Of a stretch of DNA of 64,000 nt, positions 13,047-53,839 are shown one piece after another; the first letter of the stretch is position 1, and every line of letters starts with the position of its first letter. The stretch comes from an uncultured Planctomycetia bacterium (GTDB taxonomy: Bacteria; Planctomycetota; UBA1135; JALUZX01), in assembly GCA_964561605.1 (NCBI GenBank), contig CAZLQD010000010.1, positions 173,077-237,076 of the forward strand. The letters run 5' to 3'. Made by a program: the position numbers and the translations under genes. A model generated the notes under the pieces. It was not told the DNA's origin and did not search any database. It was given only the letters and a program-made list of their open reading frames with translations.

Positions 13047-13084
13047 CCTTCACACTCCCTGCATGCCAGGGACTCATTGGTTCA

Positions 13085-13125
13085 AGGTCGAAACCAGGAT
13101 TTGAGGTCGAAAGCAGGATTTGAGG
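13085..13125. repeat. 19-bp tandem direct repeat, two copies plus a partial third
   Basis: aggtcgaaaccaggatttg / aggtcgaaagcaggatttg / agg. 18 of 19 identical, head to tail, about 40 bp upstream of the protease start codon in a locally AT-richer spacer. Confidence 0.8.
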
Positions 13126-13248
13126 AATGCTGTCCCGCCCCGATACACACGGGCCCAGTTGGACAACTCCCTTGTAGAGAATACTGTCCAGCCGGTCCCT
13201 GGGTTCCCTGGAATCCCAGGCAAAAGAAAAGGGCCCAGGCGGAACTCC

Positions 13249-18545: not shown

Positions 18546-18554
18546 GCTCTCCTC

Positions 18555-26093: not shown

Positions 26094-26504
26094 ATGGGGG
26101 AAAAGACCTTCGCCTTCCCGGCGGCCTTCCGCCTGAAGACGACCCGGGAATTCCGGGCCTGTTACGCCCAGGGGGTCCGGGTCCGGGGAAGGAGACTCCT
26201 TCTCGTGGTCCGCAGGAACGGCCTGCCCTTCACAAGGCTCGGCCTTTCCATCTCCCGCAAATTCGGCTCCTCGGTGGAGCGGAATCGGTTCAAGCGCATC
26301 TGCCGGGAGGCCTTCCGCCTGGCCAGGCCCGGCCTTCCCCCCGGCCTGGACGTGGTGGTCATCGGATCCCGCCCCATGGAAGGTTCTTCGCCCTCCATGG
26401 AGGAAGTGAAGGAGGAGATGGAGTTCCTCCTTCCCAAGGCGGTCCGACTCCTCGAGAAGAAACCCGGGCCGCGCCGGGGGGGGAGGAACAGGAGGCGGAG
26501 GTGA
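26094..26504 (+). CDS. rnpA: Ribonuclease P protein component
   Basis: FRLKTTREFRACYAQG...GLSISRKFGSSVERNRFKRICREAFR, typical RnpA RNR motif. Followed by yidD. Confidence 0.85.
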   Translation: MGEKTFAFPAAFRLKTTREFRACYAQGVRVRGRRLLLVVRRNGLPFTRLGLSISRKFGSSVERNRFKRICREAFRLARPGLPPGLDVVVIGSRPMEGSSPSMEEVKEEMEFLLPKAVRLLEKKPGPRRGGRNRRRR

Positions 26505-26848
26505 AAGTCCCTCTCCGGAAGCTTCCGGGCCGGCTCCTCGGGGAGATCCTTTGCCTCCCCGTCCGGGCCTACCGGATCTTCATCAGCCCCTGGAAGCCCA
26601 GGACCTGCCGGTTCGTTCCCTCCTGCTCGGAATACTTCCTCCAGGCCGTCAGGATCCGCGGCCCTCTGGTGGGCCCTCTCCTGGGAATCCTGAGGATCCT
26701 CAGGTGCCACCCCTTCGGCGGATGCGGCTTCGATCCGGTTCCCCGCAAGGGATGGCGCTACCGGGAGGAAGAGGAGGAGGTCTCCCCTCCCCCCGGGGAG
26801 GAACCACCGCTCCCCCCTCTTTCGGAAGGAAGGCGCTCGAACACGTAG
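26501..26848 (+). CDS. yidD: Membrane protein insertion efficiency factor YidD, with a ~30-aa acidic/Pro-rich tail
   Basis: YRIFISPWKPRTCRFVPSCSEYFLQAV...LRCHPFGGCGFDPVP. GTGA overlap with rnpA. Confidence 0.85.
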   Translation: MKVPLRKLPGRLLGEILCLPVRAYRIFISPWKPRTCRFVPSCSEYFLQAVRIRGPLVGPLLGILRILRCHPFGGCGFDPVPRKGWRYREEEEEVSPPPGEEPPLPPLSEGRRSNT

Positions 26849-28323
26849 AGGCCCAGGTCCCTGGGCCCGGCGAAGGCCGGATAGAGGGCGGCCAGCCGGT
26901 AGTTCGCCAGGATCCGGTCCAGTTGCCTTCCCGAAGGATCCTTCTCCAGGAAGAAGGGAAGGTTCACCACGATCCAGGACTTCTTTCCGCTCTCCAGGAG
27001 GGCCTCCACCTTCCTGGAGATGTTCCACGATTCCAGGTCCTCCACGAAGCGGGGCATATCCCCCGTGAAGGAAGGGTAGGGGTTGAGGTAGTACTCCAGG
27101 GGAGTGGAGTTCGCCGCAGCGACCTTCTCGCCCTCTCCCAGGCGGTCCCGCACGAAACGGGCCGCCTCCCGCCAGCGGGGCCTCCAGCCGTATTCGTGGA
27201 AGGAATAGAGATAGAGCTGGCAGAGAAGGGGGACGACGAGAAGCCCGGCGGCCAGCAGGGAGGGAAGTGTCCGCCCCCCTTCGGCCCCCTTCCGCCCCTT
27301 CTCCCACAAGGCCCAGGCCCCCCAGGCCGAGAGCAGGCAGAAGAAGGGAAGGGTGTAGAAGAGGTACTGGGCCGTCACCCGAACCCAGAAACCTAGAACC
27401 GTAACCCCTACGGAGGGAACGGCGATGAGCAGGAGGAGGAGATCCGCCGCGTCGGGAGCCCGCCTTCGCAAGGGCCACCACGAGAGTAGGCTTCCCGCCA
27501 GGAGAGGGACCCCCACGTAGAAGGCCAGGGTGTGGGGAAGGTGGAGGAAGGGATTGGGCGCCTTGGCGGAACCGTAGAGTTCCAGGGAGGTCTTGAGGCC
27601 CTTCATCAGGGCCGCTCCCGCCAGGAGGGAGAAGACCAGGAAGAGGATCGCCCTCCTCCTGGCCCTCCTCCCCCCGGGGCCCCGCTTCACCAGGAGTTCC
27701 CTCACCATGTAGGCCGCAAGGCCGAGAAGGACGAAGGCAGCCGAAGGGTGGGAGAAGACGGCCAGGACCGCCGGGGGAAGGGCAAGGAAGACCCCCAGGT
27801 CCCCACGCTTCTTCTGGATGCCCCACCAGAAGACCCAGGCCGTGAGAAGCACCAGGAGGGCCACGAGGGTGTAGTAGCGGCAACTCTGGGACCAGAAGAC
27901 GTGCCAGGGTGAGACCAGGAGGAGGAAAGCGGCGAAGAGCCCAGGCCCCTTTCCCAGGAGGGCCCTCCCCGAGACGGCGAGCAAGGGGACGGAGAGGACG
28001 CCGAAGAGGGCCGCCAGGAGCCTGTAGGACCCTTCCCCCGAGCCGGGAAGGAAAGGAAGGAAGAGCTTCTCCAGCAAAGGAAAGAGGGGATAGTGGTTCT
28101 GCCGGAAGGAGAGCAGGTCTCCCCAGGACCGGCTGATCTCCCTCAAGGTGAAGACCTCGTCCTCCCAGAAGCTCCAGAGCTCGATCCGGAAAAGGCGGAT
28201 CCAAAGAGCCAGGAGGGCCAAACCCAGGAGCCACCACAGGAGTTTCCCCTTCTCCCCGGCCGCGGGGAGGCCCCGGAAGACCACTTGCTCCGGCTTGGAC
28301 TTGGATGCTTGCCGGCCCGTCAC
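26758..28323 (-). CDS. GT-C fold membrane glycosyltransferase, PMT_2/ArnT (GT39/83)-like
   Basis: At least 10 predicted TM helices by eye. First-loop motif SFWEDEVFTL (the DE motif of the PMT/ArnT type). Soluble C-terminal domain. GTG at 28323 overlaps the upstream stop (GTGA). Confidence 0.7.
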   Translation of the reverse strand: MTGRQASKSKPEQVVFRGLPAAGEKGKLLWWLLGLALLALWIRLFRIELWSFWEDEVFTLREISRSWGDLLSFRQNHYPLFPLLEKLFLPFLPGSGEGSYRLLAALFGVLSVPLLAVSGRALLGKGPGLFAAFLLLVSPWHVFWSQSCRYYTLVALLVLLTAWVFWWGIQKKRGDLGVFLALPPAVLAVFSHPSAAFVLLGLAAYMVRELLVKRGPGGRRARRRAILFLVFSLLAGAALMKGLKTSLELYGSAKAPNPFLHLPHTLAFYVGVPLLAGSLLSWWPLRRRAPDAADLLLLLIAVPSVGVTVLGFWVRVTAQYLFYTLPFFCLLSAWGAWALWEKGRKGAEGGRTLPSLLAAGLLVVPLLCQLYLYSFHEYGWRPRWREAARFVRDRLGEGEKVAAANSTPLEYYLNPYPSFTGDMPRFVEDLESWNISRKVEALLESGKKSWIVVNLPFFLEKDPSGRQLDRILANYRLAALYPAFAGPRDLGLYVFERLPSERGGSGGSSPGGGETSSSSSR

Positions 28324-30656
28324 TTCCTGGTTTTCTCCTGGTCGTTCCTGGTGCCCCGGGGAAGACGCCCCCCTTGTCTCCCCCCCTTTCCGCCGGGGTG
28401 GGAAGTTCCGCCAGAGGAAGAGTAACCTCTTCCGGCGCCCCCCGTCGAAGGAGAACCGAGCTCGGCCCAGGCGGGAAGGCTCCGGGCCAGGACACCCCTG
28501 GGATCGGAAAGACGGGCGAGACGCTCGAAATAGAAGAAGATCCGCCCTCCTCTGAGGGCTCTCCAGAGGAAGCCCAGGAGGGCCCCACCCTCCCGGTCCA
28601 GGGAGAGGGCCTTCTCCCCTGTGGCCCGGAAGACCCGGGTCAGGATCCGGGACGGGGTGAGGATCACCAGCCTGGAAGGCCCCTCCAACCCGGGGGGAAG
28701 GGGAAAGACCGGCCTGGAGGGATCCAGGACGAGACGGGCCGGCGGATCCCAGGAGAGCCTGGGCAGGGTGCCGAGCCAGGAAAGGGAGGTGACCAGGACA
28801 TCCCCTTTCACGGCCAGGACCAGGGGCACGGCCTCGCCCCACCGGTCCAGGCCGTAGAACCCCACCCTGTCCCCGCAGGCCCCGATCCAGACCTTCCGGC
28901 CCTCATCGGCCGGGTAGAGGGGACAGGTGAAGAGGGGCCCCCTTTCCGCCGGATCTCCCTCTTCCAGGAGGTCCCCCCGGCCGGGAGGGGCCCAGGCCAG
29001 GACCAGCCTGGTTCCCGGCCCGGCCCCTTCCAGGCGGACCCGGATGCCCGCCACGGCACGGAAGGGCCCGGGCGGGAGGGGAAGGCCGAGCCGGGTCCAC
29101 CCATCCTTTCCGGCCCTCACCTGGAGCCCCCCCTCCCGGACCGTCCCCAGGCCCTTGGGGATTCGGAGCCCTGCCAGGGGAATCGGGCCGCCTCCCGGGC
29201 CCCGGGTCTTCTGGTCGGTGAAGGCCCCAAGCCCGGGATCCCAGGCGAGCAACCCCAGGCAGAAACGTCCCGCCCCGTGGAGAGGTCCGGCGTCCAGGAG
29301 TGGAGGGAGGAGGGCGTCCTCCAGGACGAGCACCTCCCGGGCCTTCTCCGTGAAGGGCGGCCGGAAGGCAAGGAAGGCGCAGTCGTAACGGAAGGGGTGG
29401 ACTCCGCCGGGTCTCAGGGGGAGGTGGACCAGCCCCAGGGGACCGCCGCCGGGCCGGGCCGGGAAGGCCTCCACCGACCGGATGGCCCGCTCCGCCGTGG
29501 CCCAGGCCCCTTTCCAGTCCTGGAGCCGGAAGAGGAGCCCCGCCAGGGCGAGAGCGCACATCCCTCCCCCCGCAATCCAACGAAGGCTCCCCAAGGGCCA
29601 GAGATCGGCCTTCTTCCCGGGACGGCCCAGGAGGAGGGCCGTAAGGACCGCCGCTGGAAGAGCGGGAAAGAGGAGCACCCTGGAACCCGACCAGTCCGGG
29701 TAGACCGGGACCGGTGCTGCAGGGACCAGGGAGAGGAGCCACCAGAACAGGACCGCCGCGGCCGGAAGGACCCTTCGTCCCCGGGTGAGTCCCGCCAGGA
29801 GAGGAAGGACGACCCAGAAGAGGAGAGAGGCCCACCCCGGGATCCTCCCCGGCCCGGGGGGAAGGAAGGCGGCCCGGGCCTTTCCGGGAAGGGTGGAGAG
29901 GAATTCCGCAGGAAGGGAACCGGCCGCCATTCCCCCCGTGAGCCCTCCCAGGACCCGGGTCCGCCAGGACAGGACTCCGGCGAAGAGAAGGAGGTGCAGG
30001 ATCCAACCCGCCGGATGGAAGCCCCTTTCCCGGCGGGGCCGGAGGATCTCCACGAAGAACAGGCCCGCCGGGAGGGCCAGGGCCATCTCCTTTCCTGCGT
30101 AGGCCAGGGATGCGCAAAGGAGGGAGAGAGCCGTCCAGGCCGCCCGCTTCCTCCCTCCCGATTCGGCGGCCCGCAAGAAAGAGAAGAGGGCCAGGACGGC
30201 GGGAAGGGCGGGGGTGACGTCCACTCTCCCGGCGATCCAGGCCACTGCTTCCGCCCGGGCCGGATGTACCAGGTAGAGGAAGGCCCCCACCCAGGCGGCC
30301 CAAAGTCCCTCCTTCGGTAGGAGGCGTCTCAGGAGGGCGAAGAGGATGAGCCCCGCCGCCAGGTGGACCAGAAGGTTCGCCAGGTGGAGGGGGGGAGCGG
30401 AGATTCCGAAGAGGGAGAGATCCAGGCCGTAGTGGAGGGTCACCAGGGGCCTCCAGGCCGCCCCCCCCCGGATTCCCATCCAGGGATGGGTCCACTCCGA
30501 GAGGATCCGCCCCCAATCCACACTCCCCCGGGCGTCCAGGAGAAGGGGCAGGAGGAAGGAGTCGCTGAGGAAACCCAGGCCGATCACGGGAACCCAGGCC
30601 AGGAAGGCCGCCCCTCCGAGGAGGGCCAGGGCGGGAGCCGGCACGGCGCGCTTCAC
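28320..30656 (-). CDS. GT-C-like polytopic membrane protein (TMTC/PMT_2-like N-terminus) with a ~400-aa extracytoplasmic C-terminal domain
   Basis: N-terminal half is multi-TM, with PLHLANLLVHLAAGLILFALL and VHPARAEAVAWIAGR, motifs I associate with PMT_2/TMTC-type transferases. GTG at 30656 overlaps the upstream stop (GTGA); the track start at 30680 is the alternative. Confidence 0.6.
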   Translation of the reverse strand: MKRAVPAPALALLGGAAFLAWVPVIGLGFLSDSFLLPLLLDARGSVDWGRILSEWTHPWMGIRGGAAWRPLVTLHYGLDLSLFGISAPPLHLANLLVHLAAGLILFALLRRLLPKEGLWAAWVGAFLYLVHPARAEAVAWIAGRVDVTPALPAVLALFSFLRAAESGGRKRAAWTALSLLCASLAYAGKEMALALPAGLFFVEILRPRRERGFHPAGWILHLLLFAGVLSWRTRVLGGLTGGMAAGSLPAEFLSTLPGKARAAFLPPGPGRIPGWASLLFWVVLPLLAGLTRGRRVLPAAAVLFWWLLSLVPAAPVPVYPDWSGSRVLLFPALPAAVLTALLLGRPGKKADLWPLGSLRWIAGGGMCALALAGLLFRLQDWKGAWATAERAIRSVEAFPARPGGGPLGLVHLPLRPGGVHPFRYDCAFLAFRPPFTEKAREVLVLEDALLPPLLDAGPLHGAGRFCLGLLAWDPGLGAFTDQKTRGPGGGPIPLAGLRIPKGLGTVREGGLQVRAGKDGWTRLGLPLPPGPFRAVAGIRVRLEGAGPGTRLVLAWAPPGRGDLLEEGDPAERGPLFTCPLYPADEGRKVWIGACGDRVGFYGLDRWGEAVPLVLAVKGDVLVTSLSWLGTLPRLSWDPPARLVLDPSRPVFPLPPGLEGPSRLVILTPSRILTRVFRATGEKALSLDREGGALLGFLWRALRGGRIFFYFERLARLSDPRGVLARSLPAWAELGSPSTGGAGRGYSSSGGTSHPGGKGGRQGGRLPRGTRNDQEKTRK

Positions 30657-32203
30657 CGGTCCTCCTTCCTGGGGATCCATACGGCAGGCCGGAAGATCAC
30701 CCCCACCCTGGGATATCCCAGGTAGGGTGAGGGCCAGGGAATCCTCCTCCCCCGGGGGAGGTCATAGCCCTTCCGGATCCATGAGACCACCCTCCGGAAC
30801 CGGGGGTCGGCCTGGAGGAGGTCCCAGGAGGTCCGCCCCCGGAAGGCCGGGTCCAGTGTATTTTCGGAAAAGAGTATTCCCTGGAAGGCCCGCCCCTTCA
30901 AGGCTTCCTCCAGGGGCCCCGGCAGGCGGTCCCCTTCCATGAGTTCCCCCACCAGGTGGAGCAGGGGCAGGATCTCCCCGTCCGCCTTGAAGGTGATCCA
31001 CACGTTGTCGGGACACCAGGTCCGCTTTCCCTGCCTGCGGATCCAGGCGACGGCCTCCTCCTGGGCCTTCCGGTCCCCCGGAAGGGGGATCTCCCGGCCG
31101 TTCCGGAACCACCCGAAGGGCAGGAGGGGAACGAGCAGGAGGAGGACCGAAAGGGTCCCTGCCGGGAGGGAGAGGAAGGCCCCCCACCCTCCCGGAGCGG
31201 CCGCGGCCAGGGGAAGGGCCGTGGCGAAAAGGGGGATCCAGGCGTTGGTGAACCCTCCATGCTTGAGAAAGGCATAGGCGGCGAAAGGGAAACCCCAGAG
31301 GGTGAGAAAGGCCAGGGCCCTCCTCGCGGCGGCGCCGGGTCCCGAGACCCAACCGGCCTGGCCGGCGGCCAGGAGGGGAAGGAGGGGGAGGAGGGAGGCC
31401 CCCAGGGAGGCCCACTTGGCCTGGGACTCCACCGAGGGATGTCTTCCCAGGACGGAGAATGCGTAATACCAGAACCAGCCACCGCTCCAGGCCTGGAGGA
31501 GCAGGATCGATCCCGCCAGGGCGCCTCCCGCCCAGAGTCCCCACCGGAAGGCCCGGCGGAACCCCAAGGCGGCCCAGAGTACCAGGAAGAAGGCCGGCCC
31601 GTAGGCCAGGGCCGTCTGCTTGGCCAGGAAGGCCCCCACGAGGAGGAGGGCCGAGGCCGGGAGGGCCCGGCGCCCGCCCTTTCCGGAGAGGGCGGCCAGG
31701 AGGGCCCAGAGGGAGGCGCCGAAAAGGGCGGCGAAGAGCATGTCCACCCGCACCAGGTCGAACCAGTAGTCCACCGCCGGGGCAAGGCCAAGGAGAAGGA
31801 GCGGCGCCGCCCAGGACCTTCCCCGGGAGGCTCCCGCCGCCCGGGCGGTTCGCTCCAGGAAGAAGAGGAAGACCGCCGTGGCCGCCAGGGAGAAGGCCCG
31901 GCCCAGGGCCAACCCGGGAGGGAACACCTCGAGGAGGCACCCCAGGAGGACCGGGTGCAAAGGGGTGTAGAGGTGGGGAATGAAGAGGGATTTCCAGGGA
32001 TCGCTGTAGACCACCCCCTCCCGGGCGAAGCGGAGAGCCTCGAGAAAGGTGGAACCCTCGGACCACTCCAGCTGGAAGGGGTGGCTCCACCGGGCCAGGA
32101 AGGTCGCCCCCGCGTGGAGGGCCGCCCAGGAGAGCCCCCCCCAGACCAGGAGCCGGAGAAAGATCCTGCAGGCTCTCTTCCAGGGGAAACCTCGCTCGGA
32201 CAT
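30653..32203 (-). CDS. GT-C-like polytopic membrane protein (ArnT/PMT_2-like)
   Basis: ATG at 32203 preceded by gagagagggg. About 12 hydrophobic helices. Short soluble C-terminus. The family call rests on architecture and context only. Confidence 0.55.
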   Translation of the reverse strand: MSERGFPWKRACRIFLRLLVWGGLSWAALHAGATFLARWSHPFQLEWSEGSTFLEALRFAREGVVYSDPWKSLFIPHLYTPLHPVLLGCLLEVFPPGLALGRAFSLAATAVFLFFLERTARAAGASRGRSWAAPLLLLGLAPAVDYWFDLVRVDMLFAALFGASLWALLAALSGKGGRRALPASALLLVGAFLAKQTALAYGPAFFLVLWAALGFRRAFRWGLWAGGALAGSILLLQAWSGGWFWYYAFSVLGRHPSVESQAKWASLGASLLPLLPLLAAGQAGWVSGPGAAARRALAFLTLWGFPFAAYAFLKHGGFTNAWIPLFATALPLAAAAPGGWGAFLSLPAGTLSVLLLLVPLLPFGWFRNGREIPLPGDRKAQEEAVAWIRRQGKRTWCPDNVWITFKADGEILPLLHLVGELMEGDRLPGPLEEALKGRAFQGILFSENTLDPAFRGRTSWDLLQADPRFRRVVSWIRKGYDLPRGRRIPWPSPYLGYPRVGVIFRPAVWIPRKEDR

Positions 32204-32357
32204 CCGCACCCCTCTCTCGCCTCCCTCCCCGGGCCAAGGATAGGGCAGGGGCTCCCCCGTTCCAGGGCCCTTCCCGGCCTGCTCCCTACGGCCCCGTCCC
32301 CTCTCCTGGTATCCTCCTTCCCGCCGAGACCCTTGGAACCCGGAGGGAACCCTTCCA

Positions 32358-34979
32358 GTGTTCGACTCACTTCGAAGCGGGGCGGGCGGCCCCCGAAGCT
32401 GGATTCCCGGAGGATGGAAGGCCGCTTCAGTCTTCCTCTTCCTGGGTCTTCTGGCCATGGGGCCCGCCCTCTTTCCGGGAAAGGCCCTCCTTCCCTACGA
32501 CCCCAGGCTTCAACGGCCCTTCTCGGAGCTCCTGTCTCCCCGGGAGAGAAGGGCCCTCCTGGACGAAGCGGCCCCCACCTTCGGGGACCACCTCCTCCAG
32601 TTCCTTCCCTTCGACCGGTTCTCCGCTTCCCAGTTGAAGGCCGGAAGGCTCCCCCTGTGGAACCCCGAGCCCCTCTGCGGCGTGCCCCACGTGGCCGAAG
32701 GGACCAGCCAGGTCCTCTATCCCCCGCTCTGGCTCCAGGCCCTGGGTTCGCCCCTGAGGATCTCGGTCTTCCTGTTCCTGGCCCACCTCCTGGCCGGGTC
32801 CCTGGCCCTCTACGGCTGGCTCCTCCTCCTGGGCCTGGACCGCCGGGCGGCCCTGGCGGGTGGCGCTCTCTGGATGCTCTCGGGTTGGGCCTGGACCAAC
32901 GTCCACCACCAGATGGTCTTCTTCGCCGGCTCCTGGGTCTTCCTGGGGCTCTGGTCCCTGGAAGCCCGCTTCCTGGGGAGAGCCCCCATCCTCTCCCTGG
33001 CCGGACTGGCCGCCTCGGCGGCCCTGACCCTCCTGGCAGGGTTCCCCCAGGTCAGCCTCCTCGCCACGGGGGTCCTCTGGATCTACGCCCTCCTCCTGGC
33101 GGTCCTCCTGGGAAGGAGAGAAGGCTGGAAGAGATCGGCCGCCCGGTTCCTCCCTGCCCTGGGAGCCCTCCTTTCCGGACTCCTCCTGGCGGCGCCCCAT
33201 CTCCTGCCCACGGCCGAGCAGGCCCGCCTCTCCGCCCGGCCCGAAATCTCTCTCCAGGCCATGCGGGCCTACTCCCTGGCTCCCGCCCACCTCCTGGGCT
33301 TCCTCTTCCCCGAGCTCCTCGCCCCCTTGCGGGGCGTCCCCTACCCGAGCCTCTCGGAGATGCACCCCACTTATGCCCTCCTGGCCCTGGTCCACAGGCC
33401 GGCCCAGGTCCTGGGCTCCTTCAACGCCAAGGAGACCTGGCTCTACCTGGGGATCTTTCCCCTCCTTCTCGCCTTCGCCGCCCTGCCTCGCTGGCGGGAA
33501 CCCAGGGTTCTCCTCTTCCTTGCCATCCCCCTTCTTTCCCTGGCCACCCTCCTGGGGATCCCGGGCTTCCTGGAGGTCTTCTCCCGTCTTCCCGGGGCGG
33601 GCACGGGGGACCCCAAGCGCCTCCTCTACCTCTTGGCCGTATCGGGCGTGGTGGGGGCGGCCTTTGGGGCGGACCGGATCCTCAAGAGGGGGAGACCGGG
33701 GAAAGTCCTCCTCGCCGCGGCCTTCCTGGTCGGCGCCGCCGGAACGGCGGCCCTCCTCCTGGGCGTCCTCGCTCCGGCGGATGCGGTCCTCCGGTTCTGG
33801 CTGGAGAGGGTGGCCCCCCTCTTCGCGGATCAGCTCAGGCAGGTCGCCGGAAACCGTCCCTGGTGGGAGGTGATCGCCCAGCACAGAAGCGGCCTGGAGA
33901 AGGATTTCAACGTCTGGCTCACCCGCCTCTCCCTGGTTCGGTTCGGAATCGCCGCAATCCTGGCCTGCATCGCCCTCTGTTGGGCCCGCCTGGGCCGCAG
34001 GAGGGGCGGCCTCCTCCTGGGGCTTGCCCTGGGCCTGGCGGGAGGGCTCTGCGACCTCGGATACACGGCCAGACGGATTTCCAAGCCCGTCCCGGCCTCG
34101 AGCCTGGACCTGGCCTCTTCCTGGAAGGCCCTCTTCCCGGGAGTTCCCCTTCCCCCGCCCCAGGAGCCCCCTCCCCGGGTGCTCCGCCTGGAGGCATCTT
34201 CGAAGAGGACGAACAAGCCCTCCCTCCTGACGCCCAACCTCCCGGCCCTCCTGGGCCTGGCGGACGTCCAGGGTTACGTGCCCCTCATGTCCCGCCGGAC
34301 CCGGGACCTCTTCGCCGCCCTGGATCCCTCCCTGGACCTGGCGGGAGCGGGGGTCCACTCCCTCTCCAGGCCCGACCAGCTCCGGGCGCCCTTCCTGGTC
34401 GCCGCCCGGCCGGGGATCCTCCTTTCCGACGTCTCCCTGGAGGACCCGGGAAAGGCCGGTTGGATCCCTGCGGGAGTCTCTCCCGGGGGAACGCGGATCT
34501 ACCTGGCCGATTCCCCCCTTCCCTACGCCCTCACCCTCCCCCGCTGGAAGGTCGTTCCCGACCTCGAGCGCCGCCTGGAGCTCCTGGCCGGATCCGGCGG
34601 GCTGGACGCCCGGGAAGAGGCCCTGGTGGAGACCCAGCCCCCGCCGGGACAACGGGAGGGGAAGGCTCCCCGTCCGGCCCGGATCCTCCGCCGCCTCCCC
34701 GGCCGGGTCGAGCTCTCCGCCCAAGGTCCAGGCCTCCTCCTTGTATCCGAGACCTGGCATCCGGGCTGGCGGGCCCGGGTGGACGGGAAAGAGACCCGGC
34801 CCGTCCCGGCGGACCATGCCTTCCTCGGCATCTGGCTTCCCCCGGGAAGTCACAGGGTGAGCCTCCTCTTCCGCCCCGACAGCCTGAGAGTCGGCCTCTA
34901 CGGCGCCGGGGCCGGGGCCCTCCTCCTCCTGCTCCTCCTGGCCGGGGCCTGGTTGCGCCGGAGGAATTCGGCCCCATGA
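32358..34979 (+). CDS. YfhO-family membrane glycosyltransferase (GT-C), paralogue 1
   Basis: GDHLLQFLPF...GRLPLWNP in the first loop. Many TM helices. C-terminal ETWHPGWRARVDGKE...FLGIWLPPGSHRVSLLF plus a terminal TM, the YfhO hallmarks. GTG start preceded by ggaggg. Confidence 0.75.
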   Translation: MFDSLRSGAGGPRSWIPGGWKAASVFLFLGLLAMGPALFPGKALLPYDPRLQRPFSELLSPRERRALLDEAAPTFGDHLLQFLPFDRFSASQLKAGRLPLWNPEPLCGVPHVAEGTSQVLYPPLWLQALGSPLRISVFLFLAHLLAGSLALYGWLLLLGLDRRAALAGGALWMLSGWAWTNVHHQMVFFAGSWVFLGLWSLEARFLGRAPILSLAGLAASAALTLLAGFPQVSLLATGVLWIYALLLAVLLGRREGWKRSAARFLPALGALLSGLLLAAPHLLPTAEQARLSARPEISLQAMRAYSLAPAHLLGFLFPELLAPLRGVPYPSLSEMHPTYALLALVHRPAQVLGSFNAKETWLYLGIFPLLLAFAALPRWREPRVLLFLAIPLLSLATLLGIPGFLEVFSRLPGAGTGDPKRLLYLLAVSGVVGAAFGADRILKRGRPGKVLLAAAFLVGAAGTAALLLGVLAPADAVLRFWLERVAPLFADQLRQVAGNRPWWEVIAQHRSGLEKDFNVWLTRLSLVRFGIAAILACIALCWARLGRRRGGLLLGLALGLAGGLCDLGYTARRISKPVPASSLDLASSWKALFPGVPLPPPQEPPPRVLRLEASSKRTNKPSLLTPNLPALLGLADVQGYVPLMSRRTRDLFAALDPSLDLAGAGVHSLSRPDQLRAPFLVAARPGILLSDVSLEDPGKAGWIPAGVSPGGTRIYLADSPLPYALTLPRWKVVPDLERRLELLAGSGGLDAREEALVETQPPPGQREGKAPRPARILRRLPGRVELSAQGPGLLLVSETWHPGWRARVDGKETRPVPADHAFLGIWLPPGSHRVSLLFRPDSLRVGLYGAGAGALLLLLLLAGAWLRRRNSAP

Positions 34980-37570
34980 AACGGATCCTCCTGCACCCCC
35001 TCGGCGTCGTGCTCCTGGCGGCCCTGGTCCTCACCGGGCCGGCCATCTTCACGAACCGGGACTTCCAGCCTGTATACCTGGGCGCCTGGGCGCCCTGGAT
35101 CACCGAGGGGGATCCCGCCCCGGCACGGCTCGAGAACGAAAGGGCCGACCTGGACGCCCCGGAGAAGACCTTCCTGGCCCTGCCGGAGATCGTCTCGGCC
35201 CAAAAGGAGATCGCCCGGGGCCGGGTGCCCCTCTGGAATCCCTTCAACCGCACGGGAGGCCCCCTCCTCTCCCACTCCCTGGAAGGCCTCCTCTATCCGC
35301 CCCACTGGATCCTCTTCCTCCTTCCGCCGGGGAAGGCCTTCGCCCTCCTGGCCCTCTTCTCCTTCTTCCTGGCGGCCCTCTTCACCTGGCTCCTTCTCCG
35401 CCTCTGGAGTCTTCCGAAGACGGCCGCCCTGGGAGGAGCCCTCTTCTTCGCCTTCTCCTGCCAGGTGGCGGCCAACGCCCACTTCTTCATGCGCCAGGAC
35501 ACCCTTGTCCTCCTTCCGGGCCTGCTCTGGGCCTTCGAGGCCTGGAGGCTCGGCGGAAAGAAGCGCCACCTGGCCGCCCTGGCCCTCTTCCTGGCTGGAA
35601 CCTGGACGGCCGGATTTCCCCCCTTCGCCTACACCTCCACCCTCCTCCTCTCCGCCTGGGCCCTCCTGGCGGGGGTGAGGACCTGGAGAGAGTCGGGATC
35701 CCCCGCAGCCTTCCGCCTCCTTGGCTGGGCCGGCCTGGCGGGCCTGGCGGGCCTCCTCCTGGCGGCGCCCCAGCTCGTCCCGCTGGCCCACTATCTGCCC
35801 TGGTCCCAGCGGACCCTGGAGGCGGCCGGCGGGGATCCCCGCTCCTGGTGCGCCGACCCGGCGACGGCCCTCACCTGGATCGTGCCGGACCTCTTCGGCG
35901 CACCCTGGACGGTCCGGGACGTGCCCTACATCCAATCCCCCGCCACATGGCTCCTCTTCCTCTGGTCCAAGGAGGGCGTGGGCCTGGTCACGAAATACAA
36001 CTTCACCGAAAACGTTCTCTACATCGGCGCGGCGCCCTTCTTCCTCGCCCTCTGGGGACTCTCCCGTCCCTGGAAAGGAAAGAGGGGCCCTCTCCTGGCC
36101 CTCCTCCTGGGAATCCTCGTCCTGGCCTTCGGCCTGGACGGAGGCCTCCTCTCGGGGATCCTCCCGGGCCTGCGCCGGGCCTGCCCGGACAGGCTCATCC
36201 CGGGAGCGGTCCTCCTCCTCGCCCTCTTCGCCGCCCGGGGACTGGCCCTCCTCCTGGAAAGGGAATTTCCCCCGCGAAGGCTCATCCTCTCCGCCTGGGT
36301 CCTGGTCCTGGTCCTAGGAGGACTCCGGCTCCTCCTGGGAACCCTGGGAGAGGAAACCTGGTCCCGCTGGGTCCTGGACGTCCTGGCAGGCCGTTTCCGG
36401 GGACCCGGCGGGAGGATCTACACCCCGGCGGAGATCGAGTCCCTCTTCCTCCACAAACACATCCTGGAGGCTTCCCTCCGGAACCTGCGGAGCGCCCTGG
36501 GACACGGAGTGCTCGCCTGGGCGGCATTCCTCCTCCCTCTCTCCGTCATGGGGCTGTTGCTCCGCAGAGGAAAGACCCTGCCCCTCTTCTTCGCCCCCCT
36601 TCTCCTTCTCTCCATGGGCCTTCTCGACCTCCTTCAGCCCGCCCTCCGACTCTGTCCCTCTTTCCCCTCCCTGGACCCTTTCTCGGGAACGCCCCTCCAC
36701 AAGGTCCTCCGGTCCGAGAGGGCCAGGCTGGAAACCTCGGGAGGAGTGACCCTGGCCAGGGTGGGACCTGCCGGAACGGAACCGGACCTCTTCCCGGCGG
36801 ACCTGCCCACGGCCATGGGAATCCGGGACCTCCAGGTATACGCCTTCGTGGACAGGCGGACCCACCTGCCCATGGAGCGGGCCTGGAAGGCCCTCTCACC
36901 CGGAGGACCTTCCATCCTCTTCCGAAACGGGCCCTGGATCGGGAATCTTCCCGACTCCCCCCTCCTGGAACACCCCGTCCTGGACCTCTACGGCGTGACC
37001 CACCTCCTGGCCCGCAGGAAGCCCTCCCACGGGCACTTCCGGGAGATCCTGGAGAGGACGGGCCCCGGGGGATCCTACATCCTCCTGGAGAGGACCCCCC
37101 GTCCCCCCCGGGCCAGGGTGGTCTCCCGGGCGGTCCCCCTGGACGACGAGCTTGCCCTGAAACGTATCTCTTCGCCGACCTTCGATCCTTCGAAGGAGGC
37201 CTTTCTCCCCCCCGGCTCGAGGCCCCTGGAGGGAGGGGGGGGAGGAAAGATCCTCTTCCTGTCGGATCGGCCCGACAGGGTGCTCCTGGAGATCCGCCGC
37301 TCCGGGGGAGGGCTCCTCCTCCTGGCCGACACCTGGGCTCCGGGCTGGTCGGCCCGGGTGGACGGGAAGGAGGCGCCTCTCCTCAGGGCCGACACCTGTT
37401 TCCGGGGGGTGGCCCTCCCTCCGGGAGACCACCAGGTGGAATTCCTCCTCTCCAAGGCCCCTTTCAGGACGGGTCTCCTCCTCTTTGCGGCGGGAGGGTT
37501 CCTGCTGCTCCTCCTCCTGGCGGGGCCCTTCCTCCCGGGGGCGGCGGGGAAGAAGGGAGGAATGCCATGA
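34976..37570 (+). CDS. YfhO-family membrane glycosyltransferase (GT-C), paralogue 2
   Basis: Tail of the artefactual 2204-aa ORF. The ATG at 34976 overlaps the previous stop (ATGA). GRVPLWNPFNRTGGPL; C-terminal DTWAPGWSARVDGKEAPL...GVALPPGDHQVEF plus a terminal TM. Confidence 0.75.
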   Translation: MKRILLHPLGVVLLAALVLTGPAIFTNRDFQPVYLGAWAPWITEGDPAPARLENERADLDAPEKTFLALPEIVSAQKEIARGRVPLWNPFNRTGGPLLSHSLEGLLYPPHWILFLLPPGKAFALLALFSFFLAALFTWLLLRLWSLPKTAALGGALFFAFSCQVAANAHFFMRQDTLVLLPGLLWAFEAWRLGGKKRHLAALALFLAGTWTAGFPPFAYTSTLLLSAWALLAGVRTWRESGSPAAFRLLGWAGLAGLAGLLLAAPQLVPLAHYLPWSQRTLEAAGGDPRSWCADPATALTWIVPDLFGAPWTVRDVPYIQSPATWLLFLWSKEGVGLVTKYNFTENVLYIGAAPFFLALWGLSRPWKGKRGPLLALLLGILVLAFGLDGGLLSGILPGLRRACPDRLIPGAVLLLALFAARGLALLLEREFPPRRLILSAWVLVLVLGGLRLLLGTLGEETWSRWVLDVLAGRFRGPGGRIYTPAEIESLFLHKHILEASLRNLRSALGHGVLAWAAFLLPLSVMGLLLRRGKTLPLFFAPLLLLSMGLLDLLQPALRLCPSFPSLDPFSGTPLHKVLRSERARLETSGGVTLARVGPAGTEPDLFPADLPTAMGIRDLQVYAFVDRRTHLPMERAWKALSPGGPSILFRNGPWIGNLPDSPLLEHPVLDLYGVTHLLARRKPSHGHFREILERTGPGGSYILLERTPRPPRARVVSRAVPLDDELALKRISSPTFDPSKEAFLPPGSRPLEGGGGGKILFLSDRPDRVLLEIRRSGGGLLLLADTWAPGWSARVDGKEAPLLRADTCFRGVALPPGDHQVEFLLSKAPFRTGLLLFAAGGFLLLLLLAGPFLPGAAGKKGGMP

Positions 37571-40065
37571 AGCGAGCCCTCCTCTCGGGGATTCTCCTCC
37601 TTGCCTGCGTCCTGGTCCTCCATGGGGAGGTCCTCTTCGGAGGGGGAGTCCGCCTGGCCCTGGACCAGCGCATGTATCCCCCATGGGCCGCGGCCGCCGG
37701 GAGAAAGGGAGAAAGGCTTCCCGATCCGGTCCAGGGGGTCTTCAACCGCCTCTCCACGGATTCCAACTTCTGGTACGAAGGACAGATCCTCCTTGCCAGG
37801 AAGATGGTCCGGAGAGGCCTCCCCCCCTCATGGGACCCCTGGACCCAGGGAGGCACCCCCCTGGCGGCCCAGCTCGGAGTCCCCCTCTGGTATCCTCCCT
37901 TCTGGATTCTCTTCCTCGGCCCCCCTCTCGCCGCCGTGGGCTGGCTCGCCGCCTTCCACATGCTCCTGGCCGGAATCCTCGCCTGGCGACTGGTCCGTTT
38001 CCTGGGCGGCAGCCCCTGGGCGGCCTGTCTCTCGGGGGTCGCCTTCGGGATCGGCCCGTGGATGGCCTTCCGGGAGAACAACATGACCCTCCTGGCCGCC
38101 GCCGCATGGGCCCCCCTCGCCTTCGAAGCCGCAGGCAGGACGGCCTCCGGAGGGAAGCCGGTCCGCTGGGCCCTGGTCCTGGCCTTCGCCCTGGCCCTGG
38201 GCCTCTGGGCGGGCATGCCCCAGCTCGGCTTCGTCACACTCTGGGGCTCCCTCGCCTTCGGCCTCCTGGGGCTCCGCCGGGCCTCTTCCCGGCGAAGGAG
38301 GGTCTTCCTCCTCGGCGGGGCCTTCCTTGCGGGGCTCCTCCTGGCCGCCCCGGCCCTCCTTCCCACATACCGCCTATACCGGAACTCCATCCGGTCCGGG
38401 GAGGAGGCGCCCCGAACCCAGCGGCTCGGCCTTCCCCCGGGGGCCCTCCTGGGCCTCCTCTCCCCGGAAATCCTCGGGAGCGCCTCGGACCTGGCCGGGT
38501 GGGAACGTTTCGAGGATTTTCCGCCGGCCCGGAAATTCCTCACGGGAGATCCCCAGGACAACCCCCTGGAAGACTGCCTCTACCCGGGAGCGGCGGTCCT
38601 TCTCCTGGTCTTCCTCCTCCTCGCCGCAGGAAGGAAGGACCGGGGCGAGGGGAGGCGCCTCCCCAAGGGGGCGGGCTTCTTCCTGGTCACGGCCGCCTCG
38701 GCCCTCCTTCTCTCCCTGCGCCTCCCCCCGCTGGATCCCCTCTTCCGGATCCCGGGACTCGGACCCGAAGACCCCCGGCGGGTCCTGCTCCTCTTCCACC
38801 TCGGCCTGGCCGTTGCCGGCGGCCTGGCCCTGGACCGCCTCTCCCTGTCCCGCCCGCCCTTCCGGCTCCTCCTTCCCCTCCTTCTCGCCCCGGCCCTCCT
38901 CTTCCTGGGCGGCTGGGTCTTCCCCGCCGCCGGAGAAGGAGCCCTGGGCCTTCTCTTCGGCCCCCTGGAGCCCGGCGAGGCCCGCCCCCTCCTCCTCTTC
39001 GAGCGGGCCGCCCTCCTGGGCCCCGCCCTTGCGGCGGCCTGGTCGGCCCTTTCCCTTCTCCTCATGCCCCGCCTCGGGAAAGCAGGCAAGGCGGCCATCC
39101 TGGGAGGCCTCGTCCTGGAATGCCTCCTCTTCGCCCTGAGGACCAACCCGGCCCCTCCCATGGCCCAAGTGGAGGCCCTGGGGACGACCCGGACCGAGAA
39201 GGCCCTCCTGGAGCTGGCCCGCAAGGCAGGTCCCCAGGGCCCCCCCAGGCTCCTCCACGTCCGTTGTTTCCACGCCCTCCAGGGGAACCTGGTCACCCCC
39301 CAGGGGATCCCGGCCGTCTCCACGACCCACCCCCTTCCCTTGCGCCGTTTCGCCCGGAGGATGGAGCTCGTGGAGAAGACCCTGGTGGACCCCTCCCTTC
39401 CCAGGGGGATCGCCTGGCTCAGGAACCCCCGCTCCTGCCTCCATCCTCTCCTGGCCTCGGCCCGTATCGGCCTGTTTTGTTGCGACGACCCGGAAACAGC
39501 GTCGGAGTTGGAGGCCCTCGGCCTGGAACGGGTCTTCCCTCCTCCGGGAAAGGAGGCCCTCAACGAGGGGGTCGCCCTCTTCGCCTCTCCCCGGACCGGC
39601 CCCCGGGCCAGGATGGTCTTCTCCTGGAAGGAAGTCTCTTCGGTCGGGGAGGCCGCCCGGGTCCTTGCCGCGGGAAAGGGCCTTCTCCCCGTGGAACCGG
39701 CACGCCCCCTCCCCGAGCCGGTCCCTCCCGGGAGACCGCCCCGGATCCGGTGGATCCTCTCCAACCCGGGGACCATCTACCTCGAGGTGGACACGGGAGG
39801 GGGAAGGGGGATCCTGGTGATCGCCGATTGCTGGTACCCGGGCTGGATGGCCCGGGTGGACGGAAGGCGGGTCCCGGTCTTTCCCGCCGACCTGGCCTTC
39901 ATGGGGATCTACCTGGAACCCGGCCGGCACAGGATCGAACTCTCCTTCCGGGACCCGGACCGGATCCCGAGAATCCTCCTCCTCGGGGCGGCGGCGGGAG
40001 TCCTGGCCCTCCTCGCCCTTTTCGGGTCGGGGAAGCCCCCTGGAGCAAGAGGCTGGAGGTCCTGA
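37567..40065 (+). CDS. YfhO-family membrane glycosyltransferase (GT-C), paralogue 3
   Basis: Tail of the artefactual 1405-aa ORF. ATGA overlap at 37567. C-terminal DCWYPGWMARVDGRRVPV...GIYLEPGRHRIELSF plus a terminal TM. Confidence 0.75.
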   Translation: MKRALLSGILLLACVLVLHGEVLFGGGVRLALDQRMYPPWAAAAGRKGERLPDPVQGVFNRLSTDSNFWYEGQILLARKMVRRGLPPSWDPWTQGGTPLAAQLGVPLWYPPFWILFLGPPLAAVGWLAAFHMLLAGILAWRLVRFLGGSPWAACLSGVAFGIGPWMAFRENNMTLLAAAAWAPLAFEAAGRTASGGKPVRWALVLAFALALGLWAGMPQLGFVTLWGSLAFGLLGLRRASSRRRRVFLLGGAFLAGLLLAAPALLPTYRLYRNSIRSGEEAPRTQRLGLPPGALLGLLSPEILGSASDLAGWERFEDFPPARKFLTGDPQDNPLEDCLYPGAAVLLLVFLLLAAGRKDRGEGRRLPKGAGFFLVTAASALLLSLRLPPLDPLFRIPGLGPEDPRRVLLLFHLGLAVAGGLALDRLSLSRPPFRLLLPLLLAPALLFLGGWVFPAAGEGALGLLFGPLEPGEARPLLLFERAALLGPALAAAWSALSLLLMPRLGKAGKAAILGGLVLECLLFALRTNPAPPMAQVEALGTTRTEKALLELARKAGPQGPPRLLHVRCFHALQGNLVTPQGIPAVSTTHPLPLRRFARRMELVEKTLVDPSLPRGIAWLRNPRSCLHPLLASARIGLFCCDDPETASELEALGLERVFPPPGKEALNEGVALFASPRTGPRARMVFSWKEVSSVGEAARVLAAGKGLLPVEPARPLPEPVPPGRPPRIRWILSNPGTIYLEVDTGGGRGILVIADCWYPGWMARVDGRRVPVFPADLAFMGIYLEPGRHRIELSFRDPDRIPRILLLGAAAGVLALLALFGSGKPPGARGWRS

Positions 40066-40067
40066 GG

Positions 40068-40844
40068 GTGGCGCGGGATTTTCCTTTCAGGGTATACCAA
40101 CTGGGCTCCGGGTCCTCGGGCAACCTGACCGCCCTGGAGGGTCCGGAGGGGGTGCTCCTGGTGGACGCGGGCTTCCCCGCCAGGGAGGTGATCCGGCGCC
40201 TCGAGAGGGCGGGCCTGGACCGGCGGGCCGTCCGGGCCCTCCTGCTCACCCACGCCCACCTGGACCACGCCAGGGGGGCGGGAGTGCTGGCGCGGCGCCT
40301 GAAGATCCCCATCCTGGCCGCCCCCTGGACCCTGGAGAACCTGGGCGGACTCCGGGGGAGGGAGGAACTCCTCCCCGTTCCCGAAAGGGGCACCTTCCGG
40401 GCGGCGGGCTTCCTGGTGGAAACCCTTCCCGCCCCCCACGACATCCCTGGAACCTTGATGGTCAAGGTGGAGGGAAAAGTGGGCCTTGCCACGGACCTGG
40501 GCCATGCCGGGGAAGAGGTCCGGAACTTCCTCTCCGGCCTGGAAGGACTCCTCCTGGAATTCAACCACGACGTGGAGATGCTTCGGAACGGTCCCTATCC
40601 CTCATGGCTCAAGAAGAGAATCCTCTCGCCCAGGGGCCACCTGGCCAACGACCAGGCGGCGGAACTCCTGGCAGGCCCGGGATTCACCCCTCCCAGGCGC
40701 GTCCTTTGGCTCTGCCACCTGAGCGAGAAGAACAACCGTCCCGAATTGGCTCTCCAGGCGGCCCGGCGGGTGATCCGGAACGGAGGGGTCTCCATCCTGG
40801 TGGCCACCCCGTCGGGAGACCCCCGGCCCCGCACATTTCCCTGA
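40068..40844 (+). CDS. MBL-fold metallo-hydrolase (YycJ/PhnP-like)
   Basis: GTG 2 nt after the YfhO-3 stop. LGSGSSGN, LLTHAHLDHARG, NHD, GHL motifs. Confidence 0.8.
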   Translation: MARDFPFRVYQLGSGSSGNLTALEGPEGVLLVDAGFPAREVIRRLERAGLDRRAVRALLLTHAHLDHARGAGVLARRLKIPILAAPWTLENLGGLRGREELLPVPERGTFRAAGFLVETLPAPHDIPGTLMVKVEGKVGLATDLGHAGEEVRNFLSGLEGLLLEFNHDVEMLRNGPYPSWLKKRILSPRGHLANDQAAELLAGPGFTPPRRVLWLCHLSEKNNRPELALQAARRVIRNGGVSILVATPSGDPRPRTFP

Positions 40845-43900: not shown

Positions 43901-43993
43901 GCCGTCGTGGGCTACGACGCCCTGGTGGAAGAGATCTACCGCTTCCGGCCCTTGAACATGGCCTACCTGAGGGAGCGGATTCTCCTGAAGTGA
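40952..43993 (+). CDS. Large lipoprotein: about 5 SbsA-type bacterial Ig-like repeats plus a C-terminal HExxH zinc-protease-like domain
   Basis: Lipobox LLLLWGCGGGG. Repeats of the form PPxxxxxxPxxGxxGVSPxxxxxxxFSExxxxxSV...FTPxxxLxxxTxYT. C-terminus has ILAHEVGHSLGL and a downstream EDIMN. Confidence 0.7.
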   Translation: MGKHYARAWWGCMPAALLLLWGCGGGGGGGSAGDSLGAGNNPLAGNIQITGHTPADRAVQVPLDGKVTISFDSPIVAGSFSSGQVTVQPEGGVPVLGDFTLDSSHKVLTFTPLEPFEEATDYLVTVKTLVYDTHYRTLARDFTFTFRTLDQDPPTLVSLTPSAESTGVSPKVVLVARFSEDLGSDSVDGDSVFLRDPTGASVPGRVTLEGSVVYFTPLADLVGGTRYTFFIRGKERGIRDRSGNALEQDLRFSFTTGYDTTPPKILATYPPQGATGVSPEAAFRVTFDDSIAPDSVSQEALVLVGPEGMSIPVNVENSPDLRTLLVVPMTDLDEDTDYALLLAAGAEGLRNRSGVAMEGSFHVSFKTGNREAPPSVESHVPSSGEKKAAVNLAARVVFSSPMFSPTFTSSTVRLLRENTPVDASVSLSGDGTTLTVRPVKRLSPKTTYTLTVEGGPYGVLSRAYLPMSRTFTLTFTTTGDTQVPEVKVFPSDGTAMVPTSSSFVAVFSEPVEASTVTSSTVRLLDPATGAPVEGSLTLEQEGRAARFKPALPLASNKSYTFQVAGGADGVKDLDGNWLDQTVQASVRTGFQGDNTPPVVTITVNEIPSDMNQGLQLAPFGFTIDVSGFDPADAAVDPASLELIVSGTGAFYPAGFKLFRWASVPSQDQVILTVPPSLPFAPGTVTVQATLADLSGNRSRPATIEFTVGSLTPEARPLERNQVVFVDFRTDREGNGHGDGTADWIQDLQDYGLIAAGDPIGKNAWMTDLMEAAILAKANELYGRNPDGTPKTEGSVSIRFVRERPPAGIPFLHMAFGGQDPEGGKRTLGQDSTGVLGRAWYDLKNSNFSDNDAGTSPGLGIFPGELFLYQANLYNQLYPGYITTFGKRFALLSPLLGGTPVGKDPLDPVVLDENFDFDNATAAQRSRYLAIFQAADDLAVALATILAHEVGHSLGLVTPGPPPAGLWGDASLHVDKARPEDIMNAVVGYDALVEEIYRFRPLNMAYLRERILLK

Positions 43994-52726: not shown

Positions 52727-52731
52727 GGCCC

Positions 52732-53829: not shown

Positions 53830-53839
53830 GGGTCGGCGC

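Follow-up and report, generated by a model that had tools for sequence, protein, structure and literature searches.

In a 64,000-nucleotide stretch of DNA from an uncultured Planctomycetia bacterium (contig CAZLQD010000010.1; called here the window, with coordinates counted from its first letter), six genes for polytopic membrane proteins form two divergent triads, a leftward one (M1-M2-M3) and a rightward one (P1-P2-P3), separated by 154 bp. P1, P2 and P3 belong to the YfhO family, M3 is a PMT_2-type glycosyltransferase of the C-type (GT-C) fold, and M1 and M2 are assigned to the same fold class by structure prediction and transitive homology. In all characterised GT-C enzymes that we know of, the sugar comes from a polyprenyl-(di)phosphate carrier, and the acceptor that receives it lies on the non-cytoplasmic side of the membrane. 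We lean, by a small measure, towards the view that each of the six enzymes catalyses its own extracytoplasmic transfer in the build-up or decoration of one envelope glycoconjugate.

Two divergent triads of intact genes

A sequence-only reading of the window had named six genes and a control region of about 154 bp. Each of the six open reading frames (ORFs) was recovered intact at exactly those coordinates, with a polytopic product according to hydropathy, and the spacer measures 154 bp:

26758..28323, minus strand: M3, 521 amino acids, PMT_2-type GT-C (Pfam PMT_2)
28320..30656, minus strand: M2, 778 amino acids, predicted GT-C with a TMTC-like core (structure model and distant homology)
30653..32203, minus strand: M1, 516 amino acids, predicted GT-C of a large unnamed PMT_2-related family (profile relatives and structure model)
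32204..32357, no strand: divergent intergenic region, 154 bp (sequence, and alignment with the related assemblies L002 and L004)
32358..34979, plus strand: P1, 873 amino acids, YfhO-family GT-C (Pfam YfhO, paralogy with P2 and P3)
34976..37570, plus strand: P2, 864 amino acids, YfhO-family GT-C (Pfam YfhO, 118 homologues)
37567..40065, plus strand: P3, 832 amino acids, YfhO-family GT-C (Pfam YfhO)

The window is GC-rich (0.61-0.72) and long spurious ORFs are abundant in it. In all six genes, however, the GC content is 0.82-0.87 at third codon positions versus 0.48-0.57 at second positions, which is a coding signature. This, together with the intact one-to-one orthologues described below, rules out pseudogenes or non-coding ORFs. 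Five of the products match, residue for residue and over their full length, proteins called on a 239,664-bp contig in the public collection. The exception is P1, for which we retain the GTG start at 32358: the sequence GGAGGG lies just upstream, and the resulting N-terminus, MFDS(L/F)R, is kept in two orthologues, while the alternative start (ATG at 32457) has no Shine-Dalgarno sequence. Nothing pointed to a mobile or viral origin: the GC content of the six genes (0.67-0.72) is close to that found elsewhere (0.61-0.71), no sharp boundary sets them apart, and housekeeping genes lie on either side.

Every internal junction of the two triads is a 4-nucleotide start/stop overlap, as had been noticed: ATGA on the rightward side (34976-34979 and 37567-37570), GTGA on the leftward side (30653-30656 and 28320-28323, minus strand). 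The sequence-only reading took these overlaps as a sign of stoichiometric co-expression. This is not supported, since such overlaps are the norm in this genome: they occur in 13 of the 32 same-strand neighbour pairs of the window, nine of these 13 lying outside the six genes. They mark operons of an ordinary style and imply no special stoichiometry. The M2/M3 overlap is not kept in relatives, where we found a gap of 36 nucleotides (L002), a gap of 127 nucleotides (L004) or an overlap of 11 nucleotides (the more distant contig L009).

Two blocks of the spacer are shared with L002 and L004, CCAAGGATAGGG (32234-32245) and CTCCTGGTATCCTCC (32303-32317). Each contains a TATCCT hexamer, one per operon direction, and these blocks are possible promoter (-10-like) elements, judging from their sequence. 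A scan of the divergent spacer with the sigma-70 consensus gave no match, and terminator-like sites were no commoner than in shuffled sequence.

The rightward triad: three YfhO paralogues

The assignment of the three plus-strand genes to the YfhO family was confirmed. All three products pass the Pfam cut-off for YfhO (PF09586; 36.7 bits for P1, 30.0 for P2 and 35.1 for P3, cut-off 28.5), and they are mutual paralogues (BLASTP E-values of 1e-13 to 4e-17, about 30% identity). The Pfam matches are restricted to the last ~40-60 residues (profile positions ~775-835). In an alignment of 65 sequences, family-conserved columns, including PLWNP, are kept in P1-P3 from residue ~30 to residue ~860, and most of the 118 homologues of P2 carry PF09586. 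Hydropathy profiles of P1-P3 show a polytopic core, a soluble stretch of about 270 residues and a final transmembrane helix. NCBIfam adds weak C-terminal matches of P1-P3 to PgfM2 and PgfM1 (11-28 bits, against cut-offs of 1400-1500). A 'cell surface glycopolymer formation' family also appeared among the sub-threshold NCBIfam matches of the locus. Orthologues of P2 are 70%, 70% and 50% identical, and those of P3 70% identical.

A YfhO-like profile retrieved nothing significant from PDB sequences and we found no solved YfhO structure, so that the GT-C status of the family relies on the literature: YfhO is predicted to adopt a GT-C fold, and acts extracellularly with undecaprenyl-phosphate-sugars on teichoic acids (PMC8035078). 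Streptococcal members glycosylate Ser/Thr-rich disordered protein regions (bioRxiv 10.1101/2024.05.05.592596). Our literature searches returned no experimental work on YfhO outside Firmicutes, and none on GT-C systems of Planctomycetota.

Among the distant homologues, five proteins of ~1360-1410 residues (P0040, P0049, P0081, P0087 and P0131, some labelled Chloroflexi) are fusions of a YfhO protein with a Wzx-like flippase domain (PF01943/PF13440/PF03023). This architecture hints that some YfhO enzymes may act directly with flipped lipid-linked glycans.

The leftward triad: three distant lineages

All six genes had been described as paralogues. This is true of P1-P3, but M1, M2 and M3 have no similarity to one another that BLASTP among the six proteins could detect. 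They are related at the profile level (in hhalign comparisons, the M3 family matches the M1 family with 90% probability and an E-value of 1.7e-6 over 306 columns, and the M2 family matches the M1 family with 81% probability), which makes their families distant members of one superfamily. These profile comparisons point to three distant ArnT/PMT_2-superfamily lineages and not to a triad of paralogues. Likewise, the earlier description of the three minus-strand proteins as PMT_2/ArnT-like stands in that all three fall within GT-C, M1 and M2 through their structure models and M3 through Pfam, but a direct PMT_2 match was obtained for M3 only.

In M3, the PMT_2 match (PF13231) has an E-value of 1.3e-7 and a score of 32.4 bits (cut-off 26.1), and a weak, sub-threshold match to the NCBIfam family Agl23 was also seen. 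The protein has a C-terminal soluble domain followed by a Ser/Gly-rich tail, and its orthologues are 76%, 76% and 50% identical.

M1 and M2 have no Pfam match at all (E<=0.01), and their assignment to GT-C is a prediction based on modelled structures and intermediate homologues. For M1, the AlphaFold2 model is of high confidence (predicted local distance difference test (pLDDT) score 92.3, predicted template modelling (pTM) score 0.93), and the top 43 Foldseek matches in the PDB are all GT-C enzymes (ArnT, STT3, AglB, PglB, AftD, Pmt4, ALG12, AftB, PimE, Emb). Only six close relatives of M1 were found, but a search of 1.84 billion cluster representatives with the M1-family profile retrieved 4206 proteins; in a sample of 60 of these relatives, 38 carry PMT_2 and 12 carry GT87. 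M1 has further motifs beyond its first loop (D149..R152.D154 and K195-Q196) and a C-terminal alpha/beta domain. Searches of PDB sequences found nothing with single-sequence queries of M1, M3 and P2, and nothing significant with the M1-family profile. A small protein encoded at 24240-24830 matched the M1 hidden Markov model weakly over 36 residues and was dismissed as a family member.

M2 is a composite protein. Its membrane core spans approximately residues 1-396 and finds its distant sequence relatives among tetratricopeptide repeat (TPR)/TMTC proteins, including vertebrate TMTC2, the homology being limited to the first ~130-220 residues. M2 and its TMTC-type relatives have in common a first-loop Asp and the motifs HL.N..(V/F)H, HPAR.EAV.WI.GR and KE. 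The AlphaFold2 model (pLDDT 79.6, pTM 0.78) has GT-C enzymes as its first nine Foldseek matches in the PDB, with EmbC as the best (2e-5), then ArnT (7e-5), EmbB, Pmt4 and STT3. Structural comparison, which had been proposed as a check, thus places both M1 and M2 with GT-C structures of the ArnT/PMT/STT3 type. The C-terminal domain of M2 (~470-735) is beta-rich in the model, with weak matches to FN3/Ig-like folds, and is predicted to be periplasmic from a helix count of about 11. According to the model, this domain of ~270 residues would sit where TMTC-type relatives have their TPR repeats: the Pfam scan gave neither a TPR nor a DUF1736 (PF08409) match in M2. The M2 family profile proved uninformative in a search of PDB sequences, being swamped by TPR regions of distant homologues, and a profile of the C-terminal domain retrieved nothing significant there.

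M3 and M2 both end in Ser/Gly-rich tails of low model confidence (M3, 26758-26830, ...GGSGGSSPGGGETSSSSSR; M2, 28320-28480, ...GSPSTGGAGRGYSSSGGTS...). Most orthologues keep these tails, but M2 of L004 has none.

Each enzyme keeps its own first-loop motif

The first-loop acidic motifs, already noted as differing from protein to protein, are each kept across the protein's own orthologues. M1 has LEWSEG, in which, over 60 sequences, E46 is invariant and E49 nearly so. In M2 the motif is SD(S/T)F, with S31-D32 invariant, and in M3 it is FWEDEVF (residues 52-58, with E54-D55-E56), invariant in four orthologues as FWEDE(V/I)F. The acid directly follows helix 1 in the M1 and M2 models. On the rightward side, P1 has G-D77-HLLQFLPFDRF (GD(H/R)..Q.LPFDRF in the orthologue set), P2 has EKTFLALPE (EKTFL..PE) and P3 has ST-D65-SNFWYEGQ (STDSNFWYEGQ). 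The first-loop Asp column of the YfhO family corresponds to D77 in P1, E63 in P2 and D65 in P3. An acidic residue is therefore present in the first loop of all six proteins and of their orthologues. Identity is about 30% between paralogues, versus 47-76% between orthologues, and the motifs, each kept across the protein's own orthologues, are under selection.

Conservation and distribution

The six-gene block is kept in four to five related metagenome genomes, at 47-76% identity. Two NCBI assemblies, L002 and L004, have the complete divergent 3+3 arrangement together with the downstream gene for a metallo-beta-lactamase (MBL)-fold hydrolase, with orthologues 63-76% identical. Parts of the block occur on JGI contigs L006-L008, at about 50-55% identity, and on L012, a short GTDB-representative contig labelled Planctomycetia. 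On L009 (47-50% identity), M1-M2-M3-yidD-rnpA is kept up to the contig edge and the TrkA gene is lost. Every relative whose contig spans the divergent junction has kept it (L002, L004, L006 and L012), down to about 55% identity. Orthology is one-to-one across relatives, which places the triplication of YfhO before the divergence of these genomes.

Beyond this clade, the distant contig L011 has an M2-like gene (31-33% identity) with a divergently adjacent P1-like YfhO gene. A metagenome scan with the M2 profile found this contig again, and otherwise generic TMTC-like genes only. A scan of the genome collection with the M1 profile gave one close relative besides 29 distant ones, none of them next to a YfhO gene; two of the distant M1-family loci have a TMTC-like neighbour, and distant M1-like proteins examined through context look-ups are encoded by solitary genes. 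GT-C paralogue arrays as such are not rare: on metagenome contig L050, four TMTC-like GT-C ORFs lie within 15 kb (3042-15552).

Neighbouring genes and content of the window

Two genes downstream of P3 are relevant to the discussion of acceptors and operon extent:

40068..40844, plus strand: MBL-fold metallo-hydrolase, 258 amino acids (Pfam Lactamase_B)
40952..43993, plus strand: surface lipoprotein with five Big_5 domains, 1013 amino acids (Pfam Big_5)

With the MBL-fold hydrolase, the rightward operon comprises four genes. The hydrolase gene begins 2 nucleotides after the P3 stop, preceded by GGAGG, and its counterparts in L002 and L004 share 4 nucleotides with P3. The product's Pfam match is to Lactamase_B (3.7e-15), its NCBIfam matches are to generic MBL families only, and the hydropathy scan predicted no transmembrane helix. 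The lipoprotein has an LLWGC lipobox, a weakly CopC-like N-terminus, five Big_5 Ig-like domains (1.5e-82), a C-terminal HEVGH zinc-protease motif and a Ser+Thr content of 16%. It is syntenic in L002; its counterpart in L004 is unannotated and cut by the contig end. We regard this protein as a possible acceptor, as a candidate only. Among window proteins, no long Ser/Thr-rich disordered region was found (maximum 38% in 40 residues).

Beyond M3 lie yidD and rnpA. The yidD gene (26501-26848, plus strand) and M3 converge, their 3' ends sharing 91 nucleotides, and the gene calls of L002, L004 and L009 show this convergent overlap too; yidD is coupled to rnpA by a GTGA overlap.

An operon for the modification of nucleoside diphosphate (NDP)-sugars, with tight overlaps, lies 17 kb from the cluster (57068-63999, minus strand). 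It encodes a 576-residue unknown protein whose N-terminus faintly resembles GT9, a GDP-mannose-4,6-dehydratase-like enzyme, a TylC3-type sugar C-methyltransferase and a 929-residue protein in which a C-terminal methyltransferase follows ~700 residues without family match; a DUF4254 gene is found further upstream. Its gene content suggests that it could be a source of an unusual methylated deoxy-sugar.

Elsewhere in the window, an 875-residue protein (46065-48692, plus strand) combines HHH_5, the C-terminal domain of the RNA polymerase alpha subunit and sigma-70 region 4, an unusual combination, and adjoins a zf-HC2 anti-sigma-like gene (45122-45970, minus strand). A PrkA/DUF444/SpoVR stress operon (yeaG-yeaH-ycgB-type) occupies 51227-55858 on the minus strand. 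DUF1800/DUF1501 pairs, common in Planctomycetota, are present at 17304-19856 and fit the Planctomycetota labels of the relatives.

Comparison with known systems

The sequence-only reading had found no resemblance to any textbook glycan pathway. It is correct that no characterised pathway matches the locus, but three parallels had been overlooked, namely mycobacterial embCAB/Aft, the pgf operon of Streptococcus mutans and the ALG enzymes of the endoplasmic reticulum (ER) lumen.

The three-component systems (CsbB/GtcA/YfhO, GtlA/GtcA/GtlB, GacI/GacL, ArnC/ArnT) have a final enzyme of the same families as here, YfhO or PMT_2. They also comprise a GT-A enzyme and a GtrA-type flippase, whereas this locus has six GT-Cs and neither of the other two components in the 64-kb window. 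The host differs as well, being a bacterium of a diderm Planctomycetota lineage that has no teichoic acids. The S. mutans pgf operon (PgfS, PgfM1, PgfE, PgfM2) resembles our locus in having more than one YfhO GT-C and adjoining surface-protein genes. However, it contains a GT-A (PgfS), an epimerase and two YfhO enzymes, instead of three YfhO enzymes with ArnT/PMT_2-type partners, and the similarity of our proteins to PgfM1 and PgfM2 is marginal.

With embCAB/Aft, the locus has in common the tandem arrangement of GT-C genes in an operon and the combination of a GT-C core with beta-sandwich periplasmic modules, EmbC being the best fold match of M2. The Emb and Aft enzymes act stepwise outside the cytoplasm with a polyprenyl-phosphate-monosaccharide donor, and EmbA-EmbB is heteromeric. 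The likeness is at the level of fold only, with template modelling scores (TM-scores) of 0.2-0.3: none of the six proteins has a Pfam or NCBIfam match to arabinosyltransferase families. Moreover, our proteins are much smaller, mix two GT-C families and come from another phylum with another envelope. TMTC1-4 and the bacterial TPR-GT-C proteins have the motifs of the M2 core, and among solved structures ArnT is closest to both; M2 differs from them in having a beta-rich domain instead of TPR and DUF1736 matches. In the ER lumen, ALG3/9/12/6/8/10 show how several GT-Cs can add single sugars in order to one glycan. This is an analogy of logic only, as the ALG enzymes are eukaryotic, of GT-C_B type and encoded by unclustered genes, and are more distant fold matches of M1 than ArnT and STT3.

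The component superfamilies were therefore known already, as were clustered GT-C paralogues (embCAB, pgfM1/pgfM2) and sequential GT-C action (arabinan, ALG). What is new is that divergent operons bring together three YfhO paralogues and three ArnT/PMT_2-type lineages, that no GT-A gene lies nearby, that M2 is TMTC-like yet has no TPR, and that the host is an uncultured diderm clade of Planctomycetota.

Proposed function and alternatives

What could these six enzymes do? YfhO and PMT_2 enzymes use undecaprenyl-phosphate-monosaccharides, which a GT2 enzyme synthesises and a GtrA-type protein then flips (PMC8035078). By analogy, each of the six would take a sugar from a polyprenyl-phosphate-linked donor and, via its first-loop acidic residue, transfer it to an acceptor at the periplasmic face of the cytoplasmic membrane. 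The six would represent different steps, differing in donor, linkage or acceptor position, and loci in other parts of the genome would provide the flippase and the cytoplasmic GT2 synthase(s) for charging the lipid carrier. Different steps are suggested by the distinct, orthologue-conserved first-loop motifs and by the presence, in each protein, of a soluble domain beyond the membrane core. We infer that the two triads most likely act stepwise on one product, because of the paralogue-specific loop motifs, the individual periplasmic domains and the persistent pairing of the operons. The acceptor may be a protein, as favoured by the affinity of M2 with TMTC, the streptococcal YfhO protein O-glycosyltransferases and the adjacent surface lipoprotein, or a glycan or lipid as for Emb/Aft, in favour of which are the number of enzymes and the beta-sandwich-like domain that M2 has.

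Several observations weigh against such a common pathway. Pfam scans of the ~38 other called genes of the window found no GT2 polyprenyl-phosphate-sugar synthase, GtrA, Wzx/Wzy or ABC exporter, in agreement with the sequence-only reading; in characterised three-component systems, the GT-A gene usually adjoins the GT-C gene. The YfhO set matches the M1 family with a probability of 28% only in hhalign. Outside the clade, M1-family genes have no YfhO neighbours (28 loci, mostly from Myxococcota, also from Acidobacteria and others), and context look-ups found distant P2-like genes to be solitary. Finally, in the closest relatives the flanks (rnpA-yidD, TrkA, HAD, TPR, Big_5) are syntenic as well, so that in this narrow clade conservation of the block is weak evidence of functional coupling. 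The single machine joining both triads that had been proposed from the sequence thus goes further than gene context does: outside the clade, the M2-like/P1-like pair of L011 is the one arrangement that speaks for it.

A possible but distinctly less probable explanation is a protein O-glycosylation system, in which the six GT-Cs would place sugars on Ser/Thr residues of proteins that are secreted or anchored in the membrane, and elongate them, as do PMT/TMTC and, in streptococci, the YfhO enzymes PgtC2 and PgfM1. Candidate substrates are the adjacent Big_5 lipoprotein and, in M2 and M3 themselves, the Ser/Gly-rich tails. The M2 core is indeed closest in sequence to TMTC-type protein O-mannosyltransferases (PMC7801869), but M2 lacks the TPR domain that defines these enzymes and has beta-sandwich-like modules instead. 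Similarly, P1-P3 match PgfM2 and PgfM1 at their C-termini, but far below the cut-offs. Streptococcal YfhO enzymes act on Ser/Thr-rich disordered regions, and the acceptors of the pgf operon are encoded next door (bioRxiv 10.1101/2024.05.05.592596); here, a syntenic surface lipoprotein with its 16% Ser+Thr lies downstream of the operon and M2 and M3 have conserved Ser/Gly-rich tails, yet no protein of the window has a long Ser/Thr-rich disordered region. Six different GT-Cs are also more than in any bacterial protein O-glycosylation system that we know of.

It is rather unlikely, in our opinion, that the triads are independent adjacent operons with nothing in common but the spacer, the YfhO triad and the ArnT/PMT_2-type triad modifying different envelope molecules (for example lipid A or lipopolysaccharide versus a polysaccharide or protein). 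The families are unlinked outside the clade, as seen from the Myxococcota/Acidobacteria M1-family loci and the solitary P2-like genes, and with syntenic flanks the adjacency could reflect plain inheritance. Several independent GT-A/GT-C pairs also coexist in B. subtilis and other species (PMC8035078). However, the divergent junction is kept in L002, L004, L006 and L012, to about 55% identity, while the flanks change; an M2-like/P1-like divergent pair recurs in L011 at about 31-33% identity; and the spacer itself contains conserved blocks.

Improbable, finally, is that the three proteins of each triad assemble into a GT-C hetero-oligomer like EmbA-EmbB or Pmt1-Pmt2, with one or more subunits being regulatory or acceptor-binding instead of catalytic, and fewer than six reactions: structural matches do include the heteromers EmbA-EmbB-AcpM2 (7bvc) and Pmt1-Pmt2 (6p25), genes are translationally coupled inside each triad, P2 has Glu in place of the family-typical first-loop Asp, and a review speculates that some GT-C systems require several interacting proteins (PMC8035078), but all six proteins retain the acidic first-loop residue and other family-conserved positions, 4-nucleotide overlaps are the default operon style of this genome and the M2/M3 overlap is not conserved.

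Coming back to stepwise transfer onto one envelope glycoconjugate, a bolder version of it can be formulated, to which we give little credence at present: a lineage-specific assembly line of Planctomycetota, in which two hetero-oligomeric complexes, one a trimer of YfhO enzymes and the other a trimer of mixed ArnT/TMTC/PMT_2 type, would produce an undescribed envelope glycan or glycoprotein coat wholly extracytoplasmically from polyprenyl-phosphate-monosaccharides. If this is true, a multi-step GT-C pathway would for the first time be known from outside Actinobacteria and eukaryotes, and YfhO enzymes would gain their first functional context in a diderm bacterium.

Significance

The practical weight of this locus is limited by the uncultured status of the lineage and by the fact that its components come from known superfamilies. 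Its interest lies in two directions. First, two divergent GT-C subfamilies are missed by current Pfam models, one being the M1 family, with over 4000 cluster representatives, and the other being represented by M2, TMTC-like but without TPR. Second, the YfhO enzymes studied experimentally all come from Firmicutes, where they act on teichoic acids or Ser/Thr-rich protein tails, and the envelope glycobiology of Planctomycetota is hardly explored. A conserved cluster of six different GT-C genes, half of them of YfhO type, in a diderm lineage of this phylum that has no teichoic acids points to an unknown envelope glycoconjugate, for which the locus offers concrete gene targets and candidate catalytic residues.

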